In this document: in pieces, positions 1,921-11,322 of the stretch
How the letters are laid out: each line of letters starts with the position of its first letter
Position numbering within the stretch: the stretch's first letter is position 1
Origin: Thermoproteota archaeon
Lineage (GTDB): Archaea > Thermoproteota > EX4484-205 > JAAOZP01
Assembly (NCBI GenBank): GCA_049700215.1
Contig: JBNAVT010000044.1
Coordinates: 1-11,744 of the forward strand
Direction of reading: 5' to 3'
Length of the DNA stretch: 11,744 bases
Translations under genes and position numbers: made by a program
Notes under the pieces: model-generated
Seen by the model: the letters and a program-made list of their open reading frames with translations, nothing else
Told to the model about the DNA's origin: nothing
Database searches by the model: none

Positions 1921-2019
1921 CCTCGTGTGTAAACCGTGGCAGGCCCGCCTGCTCTGAGAATGGTGGCATGCGGAAGCCTGGAGGCGTAGCGGCGGGCTGT
2001 TTGAGGAGTGCTGTTTAAA

Positions 2020-2679
2020 ATGGCTGGCGGAAGGATGGGAATCGGGAGGTTCGATCTCCACATACATACTTTCTTCTCTAGGGACTCGCTCCTGAACCCG
2101 AGGCTGCTGCCCAGGGTGGCTGCTTCAAGAGGGCTCGCCGGCCTGGCTGTGACTGATCATAATGCTTTCGGAGCCCACAGGATGCTTGAGTCAAGCAGCC
2201 TCATAATCGTGCCCGGCATGGAGATAAGGACTACGGCTGGGGACATAATAGTCCTCTTCATACAGGAGCCCGTTAAGTCCAGGGATCCTTTCGAGGTTTG
2301 CGACCTGGCTAGGGAGCAGGATGGTGTCCTTATAGCGGCACACCCCTTCGGGTTCCCGAGGCTGGGCGGCAGCGTGGGCGGTGAGGTTCTTAGGCTTCTA
2401 GACGGCGTTGAGGTTGTTAACGCCAGGAACCTTTTGAAAAGCCAGAACGAGAAGGCGCTTCAGCTCGCCAGGAGGCTTGGAAAGGCTGAGACAGGGGGCA
2501 GCGACGCCCATTCTCTGAGGGAAGTCGGCAGGGCTTATACTCTCGCAGACGCCTCAAGCCTTGAGGAGCTGCGTACAGCGATTAGAAGAGGGAGGACCAG
2601 GGGTTCAGGAGGCTTAAGCAGCCCCCTGGCGCACCTGGCAAGCTTTTCAGCAAGCATTATTCACGCTTTAACCCGTTAG
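2020..2679 (+). CDS. PHP-domain metal-dependent phosphoesterase
   Basis: Motifs DLHIHT, TDHN, PGMEI, AHP and GGSDAH. Start is uncertain (2008/2020/2035); GAGGAG lies upstream of the ATG at 2020. Confidence 0.9.
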   Translation: MAGGRMGIGRFDLHIHTFFSRDSLLNPRLLPRVAASRGLAGLAVTDHNAFGAHRMLESSSLIIVPGMEIRTTAGDIIVLFIQEPVKSRDPFEVCDLAREQDGVLIAAHPFGFPRLGGSVGGEVLRLLDGVEVVNARNLLKSQNEKALQLARRLGKAETGGSDAHSLREVGRAYTLADASSLEELRTAIRRGRTRGSGGLSSPLAHLASFSASIIHALTR

Positions 2680-2696
2680 CCCTTGTTTCCCCCTAA

Positions 2697-2807
2697 GCTT
2701 CGACCCCGAGTATTCCCGGTTCGAAGCCGGTTTAATCCGGTGCCCCGTATTGAATGCTGGTTGAAGAACCTGTGGAAACGGTGCGCGCGATAAAGGTTCC
2801 GCTCGAC
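2697..2807 (+). mobile_element. Possible IS200/IS605 left-end remnant with a tnpB 5' stub
   Basis: Hairpin GCTTCGA(2697-2703)/TCGAAGC(2721-2727), overlapping CCGGTTCGAAGCCGG, followed by PVETVRAIKVPLD, which resembles archaeal TnpB N-termini. Confidence 0.4.
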
Positions 2808-2819
2808 TGTTTAAAACTT

Positions 2820-2845
2820 GAAAAGATAAAAAAGGAGAAGGGGGT
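2820..2845 (-). terminator. Archaeal oligo-T/pyrimidine terminator of the micro-gene
   Basis: Minus strand reads CCCCCTTCTCCTTTTTTATCTTTTC, starting about 15 nt after the TGA at 2859. Confidence 0.6.
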
Positions 2846-2858
2846 GATAGAAGTCCCG

Positions 2859-2915
2859 TCAACACTTCTTAGTTGCCTTCTTAGTCTTCTTCTTAGCCTT
2901 CTTCTTAGCGGCCAT
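2859..2915 (-). CDS. 18-aa lysine-rich microprotein MAAKKKAKKKTKKATKKC
   Basis: ATG GCC GCT AAG AAG AAG GCT AAG AAG AAG ACT AAG AAG GCA ACT AAG AAG TGT TGA. BRE/TATA ends 28 nt upstream, an oligo-T tract follows, and all 10 Lys codons are AAG. Confidence 0.72.
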   Translation of the reverse strand: MAAKKKAKKKTKKATKKC

Positions 2916-2943
2916 CTTCAGGAAGATATTATGCAAGCATACA

Positions 2944-2955
2944 CTTAAACTTTTT
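2944..2955 (-). promoter_or_regulatory. BRE + TATA box of the micro-gene
   Basis: Minus strand AAAAAG-TTTAAG, 28 nt before the ATG, which is the spacing of a leaderless or near-leaderless archaeal transcript. Confidence 0.65.
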
Positions 2956-2989
2956 GTTTTTTTAACTTTTCACTCGGCCCGCCGGCCAT

Positions 2990-4156
2990 CTAACCAGTCA
3001 AGCCGTCGAGCGTCTCCAGAAACTCCTCCTCAGCTCCGACGGGTATTGCCCCCGAGGCTGCGACGCTGTGCCCGTCTCCAAACCCCCCGTGCTTCGCACA
3101 GGCGTCTGGAAGAATCTTGGACAAAGGTGGTTTAACACCCTCCTCTATCATCCTTCTGAGCCTTGAGGGTGCTCTCGCCGACACTTTAACATAGTCTTTC
3201 TCAAGCAGGCCGTAGCCAGGTATCTCCCTCGGGATCCTCATGAACCCGATCAAATACTTACTGTCGTCGACAATCCTCTGGTAGCTTAAGAAGGATGTGA
3301 AGCTCCCGAGAACCTTGCCGCCCATTCCTTTGAAAACGCTGCCGGAGTCGAACCATTGCAAACCCTTTTTCTCCCCGAGGCCCCTCCTGATTATCGAGGC
3401 TAGAAGAGCCTTGTTAGCCCTCCTCCTCTCCTCCTCAAGGGTTTCTGAAAGGCTGAGGGTCTCCGGGCTGAAGCCTTTCAAACAGGCTTCAAGAGCCTTC
3501 TCCACGCCACCCCTGTAGTATCCTACTGAGGCGAGTATCGTGATGGCTTGGGAAGCCTTAACCCTCGAGAGCCCGAAGCCTTCTGCAACAATCTTGAAGT
3601 CCCTCCCCGACTGTTTCACAACACCCTCCTTCAAAGAGTCCTCGAGAGCAATCCTGTTGAAGCCCGCTGCCTCACCCGGTGTTTCAACCGAGCCTATCAC
3701 CGCCAGGTGGGAGAGCCTTCTAAGATCGCTGTCAACCCTCCTGGCGAAGAGATAGGCGACTGTTGAGGCTGAAGCATCCCTCTCCCCACGGTAGCCGTAG
3801 AGCTCAGGGTTCAGGTTTAAAACGCTGCTCGTGTGCGAGGGCTGAGTATCATGGTGGTCAAGGATCACCGCCAAGCAGTCCTTCCCAGTGTTCTCCTCTA
3901 TTTTCTCAACATGGGCTGAGCCGATGTCGCTGAACACTGTCACACGGTTTTCAGAAAGGGTTTTCGCAAGAACCTCTGGGAAAAGCTTGTCTACGCAGAG
4001 GGTTTTAACGTTGAAACCCATTTTTTCAAGCGCCGTCTTAACTATCGCGGCTGAGCAAACCCCGTCAGCCTCGTCGTGGTGGATTAAAACAGCCTCGCCC
4101 ACCCTGCGCTTAAGCTCTTCAACAGCCTTAGCAAGGCTTGCTTCAAACCTCTCCAA
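2990..4156 (-). CDS. DHH-family phosphoesterase (archaeal RecJ/GAN-like, with DHHA1 domain)
   Basis: HHDEADG, FSDIGS, ILDHH, LNPEL, DASAS, VSAR and GFGDGHSVAASG (variant of GGGH). Confidence 0.88.
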   Translation of the reverse strand: MERFEASLAKAVEELKRRVGEAVLIHHDEADGVCSAAIVKTALEKMGFNVKTLCVDKLFPEVLAKTLSENRVTVFSDIGSAHVEKIEENTGKDCLAVILDHHDTQPSHTSSVLNLNPELYGYRGERDASASTVAYLFARRVDSDLRRLSHLAVIGSVETPGEAAGFNRIALEDSLKEGVVKQSGRDFKIVAEGFGLSRVKASQAITILASVGYYRGGVEKALEACLKGFSPETLSLSETLEEERRRANKALLASIIRRGLGEKKGLQWFDSGSVFKGMGGKVLGSFTSFLSYQRIVDDSKYLIGFMRIPREIPGYGLLEKDYVKVSARAPSRLRRMIEEGVKPPLSKILPDACAKHGGFGDGHSVAASGAIPVGAEEEFLETLDGLTG

Positions 4157-5338: not shown

Positions 5339-5833
5339 CTACTTCTCCCCGACGGCGAGCTCCTGCAGGAGGGTTTGCACAGCCTTCTTGCTTAGCTCCC
5401 TAGCAGCCTGGTCGAGAGTAACGTATTTCAAAGCATCCTTCGGACAGTGTTCAACGCACCTCGGGTAGCCCTGCTTCTCGCAGTAGTCGCAGATGACAAC
5501 CTTCCTCTTATCCAGGTGGAGCCTTATTACTCCAAAGGGGCATGTTTCAACACACCAGCCGCACCCGTTGCACTTGTTCTCGTCTACAACTATGACTCCG
5601 TTAGGCTTCTGCGTTAAAGCGTCTCTCGGGCATGCTTTAACACACGGAGGGTCCTCGCACTTCCTGCATGCTACAGCAAGGTTCAGGAAGGGCTCTATCC
5701 TGACAACCCTTATCCTAGACTTCTTAATGTTTAGGACGCCCTCGCTTGCGAACGAGCACACGTATTCGCATATCCTGCACCCGTTGCACTTGTCAGGGTC
5801 GCAAACAATTATTTTCCTAAGCCTCGACTCCAA
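5339..5833 (-). CDS. 4x[4Fe-4S] electron-transfer subunit (DmsB/HydN/AorA-like) associated with AOR
   Basis: CNGCRICEYVC, CRKCEDPPCVKACP, CNGCGWCVETCP and CDYC...CVEHCP. Overlaps the 3' end of aor and has GGAGGAGG before its TTG. Confidence 0.9.
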   Translation of the reverse strand: MESRLRKIIVCDPDKCNGCRICEYVCSFASEGVLNIKKSRIRVVRIEPFLNLAVACRKCEDPPCVKACPRDALTQKPNGVIVVDENKCNGCGWCVETCPFGVIRLHLDKRKVVICDYCEKQGYPRCVEHCPKDALKYVTLDQAARELSKKAVQTLLQELAVGEK

Positions 5834-7667
5834 CCTCCTCCGCCTCCCTAGATAAGCCGAGCTCTAAAAGCTTGCGTTTCAACGGTATTCCATCCCTGCT
5901 CCAGCCCCTGCACTCGTAGTAGCCGTCTAAAGCCTCCTCGTACTCCTCCCTCTTTATAACCGCCCCCTTGACAACGTCGTCTGGCAACGGATCTTCGAAA
6001 GCCCTTGGAGGCGGGTAGTCGTCCCTCCTGGTTACGCCGCACTTAACGTTGAAGCATCTCGCAGCATTGTGTATTCTCTCACCCGCCTTCAGGATCTGCT
6101 CGCCACTCATGCTTAAACCGGTTACAAGCGTGTAGAGCTTAGCAAGCTCATCCATTGATTGGAAAACTCCTCTGGTGAACTTGCATATTATTAGCGAGTC
6201 TATCACAGCATACTGGTTCTCACCGTCGTAAACTATCTTCCCCCTGCTTTTTTCAAGCCTAAGCCTGTCAACCTTGCCTTTAACATCAACCTGGTAAGAG
6301 CCTGACCTAAGGTAGTCCGCACCCCTGTTTGAGACGGCGAAGCCGAGCGTTGATGTTTGCAGAGACCTTAACTCGTACGCGGCCCACTCAAGCCCTTTGC
6401 AATGCACAGCAAACCTCTCTGAGCCCTTCCCGACTATTTGAGAAGCCCTCCTAACCCCCTCGCTGAGAAGCTTTCCAAGCCTACCCTCTTTAAGACACAT
6501 CCTCCTCAGGGCCTCAAGCAGGGCCTCGTTGCTGCCGAACCTGAGCTCAACACCGTCAGTATCCTCCTTCGTCAGAACACCCTTCTCGAAACACTCCATG
6601 GCCCATCCCACCACGTTGCCAGCGGAAATCGTGTCGACGCCAAGCGTGTCGCAAATCTCAACAGCCTTGGTTACAGCATCCAGGCTACGGATGCCGCAGT
6701 TAGGCCCTAGGAGCGCTAGGCTCTCGTAGTCGACGCTTGAAACCGTGCCAGCGTAGTCCTCCCTAGCCTGGTTAACATGGTCGCAAGCTATGGGGCAGCC
6801 TGCGCAAGCAACAATCTTCTTAACATGCGTCTTAAGCATCATCTCCCCGGAGACTTCCTCAGCATACTCGAACGTGCCCCTCTGGAAATTGTAGGACGGT
6901 AGGCACCCGAGCTTGTTGTGCACGAGAATGTTCGCAGGCGTCCCGTAGAGCCTGTACTTCTCCGTCGCAGGCCCCTGGCAGCGCTCGTTCAGCTCAGCCA
7001 CAAACCTTACGAGGCCCTCTGGGTCCGCGACCTCGACATCCCTAGTCCCCCTTGCTGCGACAGCCTTAAGGTTCTTAGAGCCCATTACGGCGCCGAGGCC
7101 GCACCTGCCGACCTGCCTGTTCCTCTCGTTCGTAATGTTCGCAAGCCTAACCATCCTCTCGCCAGCCGGGCCTATGGATGCGACTGTGAAAGACTCGTCT
7201 CCAAGCTCCTCCTTAATCATCTCCTCAGTCTCCCAGGTTGTCCTGCCCCAGATGCTTGAAGCACTCCGAAGCTCAATATTCTCGTCGTCGATCATAAGGT
7301 AGACTGGTTTCTCAGACCTGCCTGTGAACACGACGCCATCCCAGCCTGCGCTCTTAAACTCCGACGCGAAAAGACCCGAGGAGATTCCGAAGCCGAAGAT
7401 GCCTGTCAAAGGTGATTTCGCGAAAACAGCATACTTGTTCCCGGCTGTCGAAATCGTTCCCGCCAGCGGCCCAGTCCACCAGATTAAAACGTTCTCAGGT
7501 GAAAACGGGTCTACCTCCGCAGGCTTAGGCATCATGTCGTAAAGCATCCTTGCCCCAAACCCGTAGCCGCCTATGTAGTTTAACGCTAGAGACTCGTCAA
7601 TCTTTCCGACGGCTGTCTTGCCGCGTGTCAAGTCGACCATCAAGTATTTCCCAACGTAGCCCTTCAA
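5817..7667 (-). CDS. aor: Tungsten-containing aldehyde:ferredoxin oxidoreductase family protein
   Basis: KSPLTG, SIGPAGE, GRCGLGAVMGSKNLKAV, CAGCPIAC, DYES, DTLGVDTIS, DSLIICKF and YYECRGW; 616 aa; GGAGG before the TTG. Confidence 0.95.
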   Translation of the reverse strand: MKGYVGKYLMVDLTRGKTAVGKIDESLALNYIGGYGFGARMLYDMMPKPAEVDPFSPENVLIWWTGPLAGTISTAGNKYAVFAKSPLTGIFGFGISSGLFASEFKSAGWDGVVFTGRSEKPVYLMIDDENIELRSASSIWGRTTWETEEMIKEELGDESFTVASIGPAGERMVRLANITNERNRQVGRCGLGAVMGSKNLKAVAARGTRDVEVADPEGLVRFVAELNERCQGPATEKYRLYGTPANILVHNKLGCLPSYNFQRGTFEYAEEVSGEMMLKTHVKKIVACAGCPIACDHVNQAREDYAGTVSSVDYESLALLGPNCGIRSLDAVTKAVEICDTLGVDTISAGNVVGWAMECFEKGVLTKEDTDGVELRFGSNEALLEALRRMCLKEGRLGKLLSEGVRRASQIVGKGSERFAVHCKGLEWAAYELRSLQTSTLGFAVSNRGADYLRSGSYQVDVKGKVDRLRLEKSRGKIVYDGENQYAVIDSLIICKFTRGVFQSMDELAKLYTLVTGLSMSGEQILKAGERIHNAARCFNVKCGVTRRDDYPPPRAFEDPLPDDVVKGAVIKREEYEEALDGYYECRGWSRDGIPLKRKLLELGLSREAEEVGVEA

Positions 7668-7670
7668 ACC

Positions 7671-7964
7671 CTATCCTCCTCCAGCCACCGAGGGGGCTAG
7701 AACAATCCTGTCGCCAGGGTTAACACGGTGCTCGCTAATCCTGCTAAGGTCAACAACCCTCCCGTTAACTATTATTAGAGAAGATTCCTCCATGGGCTTA
7801 CCGTCAGGCCCTATGAACTCTGAGCGTAAATCGGTTTTCGTGACCCTGCTAAGCTCCTCGAGGACCTCCAGTAGGCTGGCACCGGGTTTCACATTAATCT
7901 TCATGCTCCTCCTGTTGAAGATTTTTCGGAACCTTCCCACCAGCTCCAGCTCCACCTCGCTCAC
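7671..7964 (-). CDS. moaD: MoaD/ThiS/SAMP ubiquitin-like sulfur carrier
   Basis: IIVNGR...GDRIVLAPSVAGGG with C-terminal di-glycine; first gene of the aor operon. Confidence 0.88.
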   Translation of the reverse strand: MSEVELELVGRFRKIFNRRSMKINVKPGASLLEVLEELSRVTKTDLRSEFIGPDGKPMEESSLIIVNGRVVDLSRISEHRVNPGDRIVLAPSVAGGG

Positions 7965-7971
7965 AATAGGC

Positions 7972-8037
7972 TAGAATGCTTTTAAGCATGATATAAGATT
8001 TTTCTAAGGCCCCCCAAGCATTCTAAAAGTTTTTCTA
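7972..8037. promoter_or_regulatory. Divergent promoter region with repeated AAGCAT(TCTA) half-sites
   Basis: TAGAATGCTT (7972-7981) / AAGCATTCTA (8016-8025) form a perfect 10-bp inverted repeat. ATGCTT-tt-AAGCAT lies at 7976-7989. Minus-strand BRE/TATA is GAAAAATCTTATA. Confidence 0.55.
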
Positions 8038-8065
8038 CTGCTTTCCGAGGCTTTCCCCAGGTTAA

Positions 8066-8887
8066 TTGGCGACAAGGCTGGCTGAGGATGCTACGCTGCT
8101 GACTGTTGAGAGGCGTTTCTACACTGATTACGTTCAACTAGTCCTCGACAGGAGCAAGTGTATCTTCTGCGACGTCTGCATCAAGATGTGCCCCAAGAGC
8201 ACGATCAGGCTTTCGAGGAAAGAGGATGGCTCGCTAACCCTTAAAATAGGGGAGGAGTGTAGCCTCTGCGGCGCGTGCGAACCATTCTGCCCAACTGGCG
8301 CAATAACCATGACGGTTAACGGTAGGCGCGTCAACCCGCTGGTCTCCTCAGGAGGCTTCCCCCTCCCACTGCCTAAGATAAGGGTGGACCAGGCGAAATG
8401 CAGGAGAGACTGCTTCGAATGCTCCAAAGCCTGCCCCACGGGAGCTTTAAAAATAGACTCTGCGCACAACGTTAAGGTTGACGAGGAGAAGTGTTTAAGA
8501 TGCCCGTGGTGCGAGGACGCTTGCCCAGAGAAAGCGGTGAAGGTAAACCCGTTGTTTGAGGGAACAGTTTTCATAGACGAGTCTAAGTGCGAGGAGAAGT
8601 GCGACGCCTGCGTTGAAGCCTGCCCGACTAAAGCCATCGCTAAAACCGGTGGAAGAATACGAGTCAACCCTAGGTACTGCATACTCTGCAACGCCTGCAT
8701 CCATCTGGATGTCTGCAGGAACCGTGCGATAACCGTGGTCAGGCGGAGAGTCCTACACGGGGAGGGCTTCTCAGCAGTCTGGGCTAACGCTGTCGAGAAC
8801 CTCCTGGGTGGAAAACCCTTGGCGAGGGAGCTGGACTCTGAAGGCTACCGGAGGGTCAGGAGGCTGGTTGAGGAGGCGAGGCTCTGA
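8066..8887 (+). CDS. Polyferredoxin, 6x[4Fe-4S], FwdF-like
   Basis: Six Cys motifs: CIFCDVCIKMCP, CSLCGACEPFCP, CRRDCFECSKACP, CLRCPWCEDACP, CEEKCDACVEACP and CILCNACIHLDVC. The N-terminal VERR...LVLDRSKC resembles FwdF. TGATG overlap with hdrA. Confidence 0.88.
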   Translation: MATRLAEDATLLTVERRFYTDYVQLVLDRSKCIFCDVCIKMCPKSTIRLSRKEDGSLTLKIGEECSLCGACEPFCPTGAITMTVNGRRVNPLVSSGGFPLPLPKIRVDQAKCRRDCFECSKACPTGALKIDSAHNVKVDEEKCLRCPWCEDACPEKAVKVNPLFEGTVFIDESKCEEKCDACVEACPTKAIAKTGGRIRVNPRYCILCNACIHLDVCRNRAITVVRRRVLHGEGFSAVWANAVENLLGGKPLARELDSEGYRRVRRLVEEARL

Positions 8888-11322
8888 TGAGCGGGGAGCC
8901 GAGGATAGGCGTCTTCGTATGCCACTGCGGGAAGAACATCGCCGGCACGGTTGACGTCGCGAAGGTCGCCGAGTACGCTAAAACCCTCCCGAGCGTAGTG
9001 TACTCCACCCATAATCTTTACACGTGCTCCGACGCCGGCCAGGCTGAGATAAAGAGGATAATTAGTGAACACGGGCTTAACAGGGTTGTCGTAGCAGCCT
9101 GCAGCCCGAAGATGCATGAGCCCACTTTCAGAGCATGCGTCTCAGAAGCAGGTTTAAACCCGTACCTGTTTGAAATGGCTAACATAAGGGAGCACTGCTC
9201 CTGGGTACACGCGAGAGACCCTGAGGGCGCAACTAGGAAGGCGATGGACCTTGTTAAAATGGCTGTGGCGAAGGCTCGCCTCCTAGAGCCTCTTGAGCCG
9301 ATAATCGTCCCAGTTGAGAAAACCCTGCTCGTCATAGGCGGAGGGATAGCTGGAATGAGGGCTGCGCTCGACGTCGCCGACTCAGGGTACAGCGTTATAC
9401 TTGTTGAGAAAAACCCGGGCCTCGGGGGGAAGACGATGCTTCTTGGAAAAACATTCCCCACGGTTGACTGCACAGCCTGCCTCGTCAACGAGATGGTTAG
9501 CAGGGTTCTCACACACCCACGCATAAGGGTTCTCACGCTCTCCGAGGTTGCTGCAGTAGACGGGTACGTGGGGAACTTCATGGTTACAGTGAGGAGGAAG
9601 CCGTCGCGAGTCTCGGAGAAGTGCGTGGGATGCGGGAGATGCGTTGAAAAATGCCCCGTCCAGGTTGACGAGGAGTTCAGCCACGGGTTGTCCAAGAGGA
9701 GGGCGATCTACCTGGTTGAGAAAACCCAGGGTAACCCTGCATGCGAACAGGGCTTGGAGAAAATACTTCATGTTCAGGGCCTCGTCGGTAAACCGTTGGC
9801 AGCGGTAATAGACGGGGAGAACTGCACGGGCTGCGGGAAATGCGTTGAAGCATGCCCCGTTAACGCGATAAACCTTAAGGCCCCGGGAATCGAGGAAGTA
9901 TTCAAGGTTGGAGCAATAATCCTCGCAACAGGCTTCGACCTCTTCAACCCGTTGAGGAAGCCGGAGTACGGCTACGGCAGGCTTAGAAACGTTTTGACAA
10001 GCATGGAGCTTGAGAGAATGCTGACGCCCGACGGGCCAACCCGAGGCGAGCCGGTAAGACCCTCAGACGGGAAGCCGGCTGGGAGAATAGCGTTCATACA
10101 GTGCGTGGGCTGCAGGGATGAGCAGACAAACATCTACTGCTCAAGAATATGCTGCATGATAACCCTTAAGCAAGCAATACTCCTTAAGAGGAAGAACCCT
10201 GATACTGAGGTAACCGTGTACTACATAGATGTTAGAGCAGGGGGGAAAGAGTATGAAACAATATTCAGAATTGCGAGGGAGAAGGGAGTGAGATTCATCA
10301 GGGGCAGACCCAGCGGAGTCGAGGAAGCAGGCGGAATGCTTAAGATACAGGCGGAGGACACTCTGAGCGGAGAGAGAACAGAGGAGAATTACGACCTCGT
10401 AGTCCTCGCGACAGGAATGCAGCCCTCGGAAGGCATGGATAAGCTTGGAGAAATACTTAGAGTGCCGAGAGACCAGTACGGATTCTTCATGGAGGCGCAC
10501 ATCAAGCTTAAACCGGTTGAAACGGTCGTAAACGGCATATTCCTAGCGGGCTCGTGCGCAGGACCAACAGACATACCGATGACGATAGCCAGGGGGCATG
10601 CGGCAGCATCGAAAACACTAATGCTATTCTCAAAGGACTTCATGGAGCTCGAACCAATAATAAGCTACGTCGACCCGTTGAAATGCAAAGGATGTCTAGC
10701 ATGCACAAAAATGTGCCCGTTCCAAGCGTTGAAGCCGGTGGAAGCCGAGGGCAGGAGAATAATACAGGTCACGCAGTCAATGTGCGCAGGATGCGGAACA
10801 TGCACAGCAGGCTGCCCCTTCGGAGCCCTAAACCAACACCACTTCACAGACGAACAAATATTTGCGCAAATCGATGCAGCCCTAGAGGAAAATCCCAAAG
10901 AAAAAATTATAAGTTTCAATTGTAACTGGTGTTCATACGCGGGCGCTGACTTCGCAGGAGTGTCTAGGCTCGGGTATCCTTCAAGCGTGAGGATAATCAG
11001 GGTAATGTGCTCAGGCAGGGTCAGCGAGAAAATGATTCTGAGAGCATTCGAGAAGGGGGCAGGCATGGTTCTCGTCGCGCCGTGTCATCCGAGCGATTGT
11101 CACTACATTAGCGGCAACGAGTGGGCTAAGAGGAGGGTTGAGGCTCTCAAGAAGAAGCTCGGCAAGATGGGTGTTAATCCTGACCGTTTATGGTTCGTTT
11201 ATGTTTCCGCCGCTGAGGGCAATGTGTATCAGAATACAATTATTAAAATGAATGAATATTTGCAGAAGCTTAAGAATGGCGAGGTAAGTTGGGGTGTTGA
11301 GGAGGCTAAGGCGGTAGTCTAG
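8887..11322 (+). CDS. hdrA: Heterodisulfide reductase subunit A fused to a C-terminal MvhD [2Fe-2S] domain
   Basis: VFVCHCG, ACSPKMHEPTF, ANIREHCSWVH, GGGIAG, KTFPTVDC, inserted and C-terminal ferredoxin pairs, and YCSRICCM. From about 10900 the MvhD motifs CNWCSYAGAD, RVMCSGRV, CHPSDCHY and VSAAEG appear. Confidence 0.95.
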   Translation: MSGEPRIGVFVCHCGKNIAGTVDVAKVAEYAKTLPSVVYSTHNLYTCSDAGQAEIKRIISEHGLNRVVVAACSPKMHEPTFRACVSEAGLNPYLFEMANIREHCSWVHARDPEGATRKAMDLVKMAVAKARLLEPLEPIIVPVEKTLLVIGGGIAGMRAALDVADSGYSVILVEKNPGLGGKTMLLGKTFPTVDCTACLVNEMVSRVLTHPRIRVLTLSEVAAVDGYVGNFMVTVRRKPSRVSEKCVGCGRCVEKCPVQVDEEFSHGLSKRRAIYLVEKTQGNPACEQGLEKILHVQGLVGKPLAAVIDGENCTGCGKCVEACPVNAINLKAPGIEEVFKVGAIILATGFDLFNPLRKPEYGYGRLRNVLTSMELERMLTPDGPTRGEPVRPSDGKPAGRIAFIQCVGCRDEQTNIYCSRICCMITLKQAILLKRKNPDTEVTVYYIDVRAGGKEYETIFRIAREKGVRFIRGRPSGVEEAGGMLKIQAEDTLSGERTEENYDLVVLATGMQPSEGMDKLGEILRVPRDQYGFFMEAHIKLKPVETVVNGIFLAGSCAGPTDIPMTIARGHAAASKTLMLFSKDFMELEPIISYVDPLKCKGCLACTKMCPFQALKPVEAEGRRIIQVTQSMCAGCGTCTAGCPFGALNQHHFTDEQIFAQIDAALEENPKEKIISFNCNWCSYAGADFAGVSRLGYPSSVRIIRVMCSGRVSEKMILRAFEKGAGMVLVAPCHPSDCHYISGNEWAKRRVEALKKKLGKMGVNPDRLWFVYVSAAEGNVYQNTIIKMNEYLQKLKNGEVSWGVEEAKAVV

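Follow-up and report, generated by a model that had tools for sequence, protein, structure and literature searches.

A conserved stand-alone micro-gene for a lysine-rich, cysteine-ended peptide in Brockarchaeota, a candidate encoded polycation

The C-terminal domain of histone H1, the protamines, chlamydial Hc1 and Hc2 and the AlgP/Bordetella-type proteins (NF038053) have an acid-free, disordered composition of Lys with Ala, Thr and Ser, and mammalian protamines cross-link through Cys. The small basic ribosomal proteins eL41 (PF05162), bS22 (PF08213), bL37 and bTHX fill an rRNA groove; they are Arg-rich and fixed in length and sequence. In thermophiles, long-chain and branched polyamines are small multivalent cytoplasmic cations to which a stabilising effect on nucleic acids in the heat is ascribed. 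Here we analysed a contig of 11,744 nt (JBNAVT010000044.1, hereafter the window) from a Brockarchaeota genome of the Thermoproteota, and describe on its minus strand an open reading frame (ORF) of 18 codons, the micro-ORF, which encodes the lysine-rich peptide MAAKKKAKKKTKKATKKC.

A comparison of the micro-peptide with the H1/protamine type shows a shared composition, as the acid-free Lys/Ala/Ser/Thr low complexity of this type is found in the 17 orthologues described below. By analogy, the same kind of action would be expected, a non-specific charge neutralisation of nucleic acids. However, the micro-peptide is 5–20 times shorter and stands alone instead of forming a tail, with neither a globular nor an anchoring part. 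Its gene is archaeal, with a B-recognition element (BRE)/TATA promoter and a predicted leaderless mRNA, and the profiles PF07432 and NF038053 do not match it. With the eL41-type proteins it shares the size class (about 20–35 residues), extreme basicity and a stand-alone gene missed by gene callers, but it contains no Arg, its length and repeat period vary, and no profile match was obtained. Compared to the polyamines, it would be gene-encoded, ribosomally made, charged to about +10 and controlled by a promoter, not by a pathway. Leader attenuators of the hisL/trpL type are likewise very short ORFs, with one amino acid over-represented and a terminator behind them. The micro-ORF differs from them in having no co-oriented gene downstream and no alternative RNA structures, since the fold of the predicted transcript does not surpass that of shuffled sequence (z=0.03; 103 of 200 shuffles fold at least as well). 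A leader-peptide attenuator was rejected on these grounds: the next gene, a PHP gene, is convergent, and because of this the micro-ORF is not the leader of a downstream gene.

The micro-gene as a conserved transcription unit

The elements of the unit, in coordinates of the window, are as follows.

2961..2975, minus strand: A-rich block AAAAGTTAAA..., ahead of the core promoter; marks where the conserved unit begins, from the BLAST alignment limits; partly invariant
2943..2960, minus strand: invariant 18-nt core promoter AAAACAAAAAGTTTAAGT, identical in 17/17 genus genomes
2955–2950, minus strand: BRE-like AAAAAG, within the core promoter
2949–2944, minus strand: TATA-like TTTAAG, within the core promoter, with a 28-nt gap to the ATG
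2930..2941, minus strand: dyad-symmetric element TATGCTTGCATA, between TATA box and start, from a comparison of the symmetry across clades
2916..2919, minus strand: predicted transcription start GAAG, from the TATA-to-ATG spacing
2915–2859, minus strand: micro-ORF, 18 codons plus TGA, by direct reading of the strand
2915–2913, minus strand: ATG start codon
2864–2862, minus strand: C-terminal Cys codon TGT
2861–2859, minus strand: stop codon TGA
2821..2858, minus strand: 3' untranslated region (UTR), a pyrimidine-rich stretch and an oligo-T terminator, from T-run conservation
2833–2828 and 2824–2821, minus strand: T6 run (25 nt past the stop) and T4 run

The initial annotation of the window had proposed a 57-nt minus-strand ORF for an 18-residue peptide at this position, with ten Lys, all encoded by AAG in four 12-nt units, a single C-terminal Cys, a BRE/TATA pair (AAAAAG-TTTAAG) 28 nt upstream and an oligo-T tract downstream. 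Re-reading of the sequence bears out each of these features. Lys accounts for 10 of the 18 residues (56%), Asp, Glu and Arg are absent, and no hydrophobic residues occur except the initiator Met and Ala. The net charge is about +10, with a free Cys at the end. Tandem Repeats Finder reports a period of 12 and 3.7 copies at 2865–2908, which matches the four-unit body. The Lys-pair pattern AARAARNNNNNNAARAAR is found four times in the window, always within the micro-ORF, against 0.06 expected from 200 shuffles, and of the 24,049 ATG-started ORFs of 10–46 codons in the whole 2.09-Mb genome, no other reaches a Lys content of 35%. Thus, its lysine content goes beyond chance. AAG makes up 61% of Lys codons genome-wide, compared to 10/10 here (P=0.007). 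The micro-gene is single-copy within its genome.

For the analysis of conservation, we used 17 species-level genomes of one genus, including the window genome, from records titled Brockarchaeota or Thermoproteota; all of them are kin. The DNA of window positions 3010–2660 matched 16/16 of the other genus genomes. Fifteen of these matches are confined to 2975–2810, that is to promoter, ORF and terminator, with the surrounding intergenic DNA unaligned, and only the closest relative aligns over the whole gap between the neighbouring genes. Thus, the unit is conserved and the neighbouring intergenic DNA is not. An intact ATG-started ORF of 15–23 codons is present in 17/17 genomes, including metagenome-assembled genomes (MAGs) estimated to be only 70% complete, and all length changes are in frame. 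The pattern M-[A/V]-x-KKK-x-KK gives one match each in 16/17 genomes, the seventeenth having a shifted spacer, and its reversed control never matched. The spacer period of the Lys repeat is 4 residues in one clade and 3 in the other. A search of metagenomes with the invariant 18-mer gave at least 119 matches in at least 118 loci. Six of those listed are true orthologues, all with a Lys-rich ORF; among the other 113 matches listed, L482 is AAG-rich without such an ORF, and those inspected share only the A-rich 18-mer.

The codons point to selection on the peptide. The 17 orthologues (323 residues) contain 175 K, 50 A, 33 T, 23 S, one E, no D and one Arg. Lys is written AAG in 147 of its 175 codons and AAA in the other 28; AGR does not occur, and GAR and CGT occur once each. 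A/G transitions are thus tolerated at position 3 of the Lys codons and nearly absent at positions 1 and 2, whereas a purine-rich RNA free of coding constraint would tolerate them equally at all three positions. The pattern thus speaks for selection on lysine rather than on a purine-rich RNA. The last sense codon is Cys in 16/17 genomes, written TGT in 11 and TGC in five, and is followed by TGA in 13, TAA in three and TAG in one of the 17. The terminal Cys noted at the outset is kept within the genus with codon switching, but it is lost in one genus genome (G003) and in two metagenome variants and is absent from the three copies of a sister family; the weight placed on it must be lowered.

The expression signals are conserved as well. 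The 18-nt core promoter is unchanged in all 17 genomes, while the flanking DHH protein drops to 68% identity, and the distance from the start of TTTAAG to the ATG is 32–36 nt throughout. Over 2,125 long ORFs of the whole genome, TATA-like hexamers are concentrated at -38 to -28 from the first ATG, a spacing that makes leaderless mRNAs the probable rule in this Brockarchaeota genome. The predicted 5' UTR of the micro-gene would be about 1–4 nt, so that its mRNA would be leaderless as well. A T-run of at least 5, starting 3–25 nt past the stop, is found in 20/20 copies (17 of the genus and three of the sister family). No sigma-70 promoters or hairpin terminators were found over 2500–3200, although the signals scored are bacterial and the host is an archaeon.

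Between TATA box and start, the second genus clade carries ATGTT-N-AACAT where the window has TATGCTTGCATA; both arms are changed and the symmetry is retained. The sister family has TGTACA at this position. The dyad element may be an operator for a dimeric regulator or repressor. A second promoter with this element was not found in the genome, where one loosely similar site lies at C16:631. To be noted, three second-clade genomes (L012, L014 and L017; also L034-L036) have an in-frame ATG inside the dyad element. It lengthens the ORF by 8–9 residues (e.g. MFNIILLK...) and lies only 9 nt after TTTAAG. This ATG is probably unused because it is upstream of the predicted transcription start.

The micro-ORF is located in a gap of 310 nt between two genes.

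2990..4156, minus strand: DHH/DHHA1 phosphoesterase gene, upstream neighbour on the same strand (PF01368, 1.6e-9; PF02272, 8.7e-5)
2008..2679, plus strand: PHP-domain phosphoesterase gene, convergent downstream neighbour (PF13263, 1.1e-17; PF02811, 6.6e-6)

The DHH protein has orthologues in 14 named records with 68–95% identity, all of them MAGs from hot springs or sediments. They are titled Candidatus Brockarchaeota (3), Thermoproteota (5), uncultured Nitrososphaerota (3), Thaumarchaeota (1), Crenarchaeota (1) and uncultured archaeon (1). In 14/14 of these named loci the micro-ORF lies about 50–100 nt past the DHH match. The suggested synteny beside the DHH gene therefore holds inside the genus, but not in the sister family, which carries the micro-gene elsewhere, in a different gene context; because of this a functional link to the DHH gene was rejected. 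No T-run is present at 2990–2961, between the DHH stop and the micro-gene promoter. DHH transcripts probably run through the micro-gene and would end at its terminator. Two overlapping frames were considered as candidates and rejected. An antisense ORF of 64 residues (2754–2948, plus strand) is open in the window, is not conserved in relatives and has no Pfam match, and an ORF of 65 residues (2668–2865, minus strand) has no Pfam match either. The remaining sense and antisense frames are not conserved among relatives.

Taken together, predicted signals and conservation strongly support the complete, independent transcription unit that had been proposed, and we consider it very probable that this is a real, independently transcribed unit under selection. 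That the micro-ORF is translated is likely, though less firmly so. The opposite reading, an AAG microsatellite left open by chance downstream of a promoter-like A/T-rich stretch, is hardly credible: the 12-nt tandem repeat would keep the frame by slippage alone, but ATG, TATA spacing, Cys codon, stop and T-run are each kept in 16–17 of 17 genomes, with the flanking DNA diverged beyond alignment, hardly any substitutions fall on codon positions 1 and 2, and a search for frame breaks or loss of ATG and TATA, which the initial annotation had named as signs of a microsatellite, found all 17 genomes intact.

Look-alike genes in other archaea and in bacteria

Copies in a sister family are found in 3/3 genomes of one genus and encode MVAKKKSKKKK, MVGKKKSKKKTSKKKK and MVAKKKSKKKSKKKK. 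All three lack Cys, come with a TATA box and T-runs of their own and lie among other gene neighbours. Over genus and sister family together, the peptide length is 11–23 residues. The N-terminal pattern, which peptides with other N-termini would escape, revealed no tiny ORF among the remaining 375 Thermoproteota genomes sampled; its ten matches in these genomes are N-termini of proteins of 41–509 residues.

Variant tiny ORFs, again preceded by TATA-like boxes, occur in two other genera of the order, with MPKKKAKKKKK(K) in two genomes in addition to MPQCGKKKTKKKK and MPGTCKSKKKKKKKK. These variants came to light in a frame-blind KKKxKK scan of nine other genomes of the order, which yielded mostly noise owing to their AT-rich DNA. 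The loci of the variants of other genera in the order are L179 and L182 (G019), L205 (G023) and L212 (G025). Two of the order variants, MPKKKAKKKKK and MPKKKAKKKKKK, are pure poly-Lys, and in MPQCGKKKTKKKK and MPGTCKSKKKKKKKK the Cys is near the N-terminus rather than the C-terminus.

Look-alike stand-alone polylysine micro-genes exist in many bacteria and in DPANN archaea. A similar pattern was scanned over 185,579 species genomes, and the following figures rest on the 120 matches listed. Closed ORFs of 9–35 codons with at least 50% Lys account for 48 of them; 37 of the 48 have a terminator-like hairpin and a T-run within 150 nt, and 34 have a Shine-Dalgarno (SD)-like motif. Their last residue is K in 18, H in 18, R in six and another residue in six. 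The 18 His-ended look-alikes listed have 12–15 codons (e.g. MATKKKAKKKKH) and come from MAGs nearly all titled Acidobacteriota or Terriglobia. All 18 of them have an SD-like motif, and 17/18 have a hairpin and T-run 19–86 nt past the stop. They form a bacterial counterpart in which another terminal residue is conserved, at the following loci.

His-ended look-alike loci: L060, L066, L073, L087, L092, L103, L107, L111, L125
His-ended look-alike loci, continued: L129, L132, L138, L139, L142, L144, L154, L159, L163

Among the matches listed from a second scan are copies of 20–31 residues in candidate phyla radiation (CPR)/Saccharibacteria genomes and copies in records titled Nanoarchaeota or archaeon (DPANN). 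Like all these genes, the window gene has at most 35 codons, a Lys share of 50% or more, no acidic residue and a (predicted) promoter and terminator to itself, and it is independent of its neighbours. It differs from the bacterial copies in its host, a member of the Thermoproteota, in using BRE/TATA, a leaderless start and oligo-T instead of SD motif and hairpin, and in ending in Cys, where the bacterial copies seen end mostly in K, H or R. For sequence this simple, the look-alikes may share descent or may have converged.

A second small stand-alone Lys-rich gene is present in the window genome (G000:C30:14811-14969; L490:312-470, plus strand). It encodes 52 residues, a Pro/Ala linker followed by an AKK-repeat tail, with the TATA box TTTATATA about 30 nt before the ATG and a T-run past the stop. 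Its Lys-rich tail recurs in at least three other genus genomes. The 52-residue protein gave no family match, and its exact sequence is absent from the protein collection.

Searches for known families were empty and, on short low-complexity sequence such as this, have little power. This applies to Pfam and NCBIfam, searched with four orthologues of 21–23 residues at E<=10, to the PDB sequence search with the 22- and 23-residue orthologues at E<=10, and to the genome searches with Hc1 (PF07432) and the Burkholderia-type H1-like family (NF038053) at E<=10. Fourteen peptides of at least 20 residues (four Brockarchaeota orthologues and ten bacterial look-alikes) were not found in a collection of about 15 billion proteins. 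A literature search by exact peptide strings and word combinations returned nothing describing such genes. In a paper on a catalogue of small ORFs (PMC11364881) the word 'lysine' has no occurrence in the main text, although its supplementary tables may list such ORFs.

Possible functions of the peptide

Our favoured reading is that of an abundant polycation, translated from a leaderless mRNA, that would neutralise the charge of nucleic acids or other polyanions; we hold it tentatively, at a probability of about 0.45. Transcription from the strong BRE/TATA promoter at 2960–2943 would start 1–4 nt before the ATG and stop at the oligo-T tract, 2833–2821, which would give a leaderless RNA of about 95 nt. 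Translation of this RNA would yield the disordered 18-residue peptide in abundance, which would bind and neutralise cytoplasmic polyanions, with DNA and RNA as the likeliest targets, in a mode like that of histone H1 tails, protamines or long polyamines. Through its terminal thiol, the peptide could form disulfide or metal-bridged dimers of doubled valence, as an optional switch.

This reading draws on the conservation pattern. Selection acts on composition, that is on Lys with Ala/Thr/Ser spacers and no acidic residues, and not on exact sequence, length or period. Besides composition, evolution preserves the signals for expression and, within the genus, also the Cys at the end. From selection at the level of composition, we infer that the peptide would work by bulk electrostatics, and the pattern as a whole suits a disordered bulk-electrostatic polycation better than a peptide docked in a specific pocket.

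Several points weigh against it. In-frame length changes are equally expected from slippage of a 3-nt or 12-nt repeat, so that frame preservation alone is a weak argument, and the 17 genomes, coming from one genus, do not count as independent. Chromatin proteins of the ordinary kind are already encoded in the genome, by one histone-fold gene and two Alba genes (Cren7 was not found in it), and the arginine decarboxylase of the window points to polyamines, which leaves no obvious gap for a further polycation. The very strong promoter and the status of a conserved core gene present in one copy would suit a ribosomal micro-protein equally well, and a purely electrostatic role leaves the near-invariant Cys of the genus unexplained. 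The low power of the empty family searches counts here as well.

A wider form of this reading takes the look-alikes as a cross-domain class of gene-encoded polyamine surrogates, abundant, promoter-controlled and carrying charges of +8 to +15. These oligocations would determine how the charge of the nucleoid and of RNA or ribosomes is balanced and how compact these are, and the Cys in Brockarchaeota would be a redox or metal switch, since a dimer has twice the valence and could condense DNA under oxidative stress. We regard the existence of such a class as doubtful.

The main rival, which we consider somewhat less probable still, is a lineage-specific micro-protein bound to the ribosome and filling a groove of the rRNA. 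The gene is tiny, acid-free, basic, stand-alone and unannotated, as the genes of the known proteins of this kind long were; its very strongly conserved promoter and its presence as a single copy in every genome of the genus, the least complete MAGs included, would also fit. However, length (11–23 residues) and spacer period vary within one order, unlike in proteins fitted to rRNA, aromatic residues are absent, and nothing of this size was picked up by the N-terminal pattern in the 375 further Thermoproteota genomes sampled. The peptide had been said not to match the Arg-rich eL41, and this is correct in that none of its 18 residues is Arg. The six-frame search of the whole genome with PF05162 at E<=10 also gave no match at the micro-ORF, but has low power, as 14/14 control genomes failed the cut-off too; the sole match elsewhere (C19, E 0.07) lies inside a frame of 295 residues. 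The corresponding genome search with bS22 (PF08213, COX24_C) at E<=10, again of low power on short low-complexity sequence, gave no match.

A further possibility, and a rather improbable one, is that not the peptide but the act of translation or the RNA itself matters, either as a mini-ORF for poly-Lys stalling or Lys-tRNA sensing or as a small purine-rich regulatory RNA or sponge. Polybasic nascent chains slow ribosomes, the predicted transcript is very short and strongly promoted, and in the minimum free energy structure pairing of its AAG-rich body with the 3' UTR, which is rich in CU, would be possible. Against this stand the missing co-oriented gene that could be controlled and the fold, which is no better than that of shuffled sequence. 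Rfam gave no match over 2650–3020 at E<=1, and no tRNA gene or Rfam family (Rfam 15, gathering score) was found in the whole window. In addition, substitutions keep lysine and not merely purines, and the conserved Cys codon ahead of a movable stop argues for a selected peptide end.

We give still less credit to a membrane-surface peptide, in which the polybasic stretch and an S-lipidated or prenylated terminal Cys would hold the peptide on the acidic inner face of the isoprenoid membrane. The model for it is K-Ras4B with its processed polybasic-Cys tail. The position of Cys as the very last residue in 16/17 genus genomes with synonymous codon switching, directly after Lys-rich sequence, would agree with it. 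However, a CaaX-type motif is absent, the Cys is lost in G003 and the two metagenome variants, and neither the sister family nor the 48 bacterial look-alikes listed have it. An archaeal enzyme for such a modification did not come up, although no search was aimed at one. That the peptide serves a peptide-modifying or peptide-ligating system as its precursor or substrate and undergoes post-translational changes at Lys or Cys side chains is very improbable, as no modifying enzyme is a conserved neighbour: DHH and PHP genes flank the micro-gene in the genus and unrelated genes in the sister family.

The rest of the window and significance of the micro-gene

The window also encodes a pyruvoyl arginine decarboxylase and an HtrA-like protease, and a redox gene cluster spans 5339–11322 with the following genes.

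5339–5833, minus strand: 4Fe-4S protein
5817–7667, minus strand: aldehyde:ferredoxin oxidoreductase
7671–7964, minus strand: ThiS-like small protein
8066–8887, plus strand: poly-ferredoxin
8887–11322, plus strand: protein of 811 residues with FAD/4Fe-4S domains and an MvhD-like (FlpD) domain

What is new here is a stand-alone 18-mer of the H1-tail/protamine-like or tiny basic nucleic-acid-binding type in Thermoproteota, with archaeal leaderless signals and a terminal Cys. Genes this short fall under every standard gene-caller cut-off. The design of a polylysine micro-gene is thus also found in Thermoproteota, with purely archaeal expression signals, and therefore would be either of great age or a simple solution invented more than once. 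Chemistry and regulation could be approached through the conserved Cys and through the dyad-symmetric element of the promoter. If the peptide is made at the level suggested by its promoter, it would be a major cellular polycation that is missing from current models of archaeal chromatin, RNA stability and thermoadaptation.

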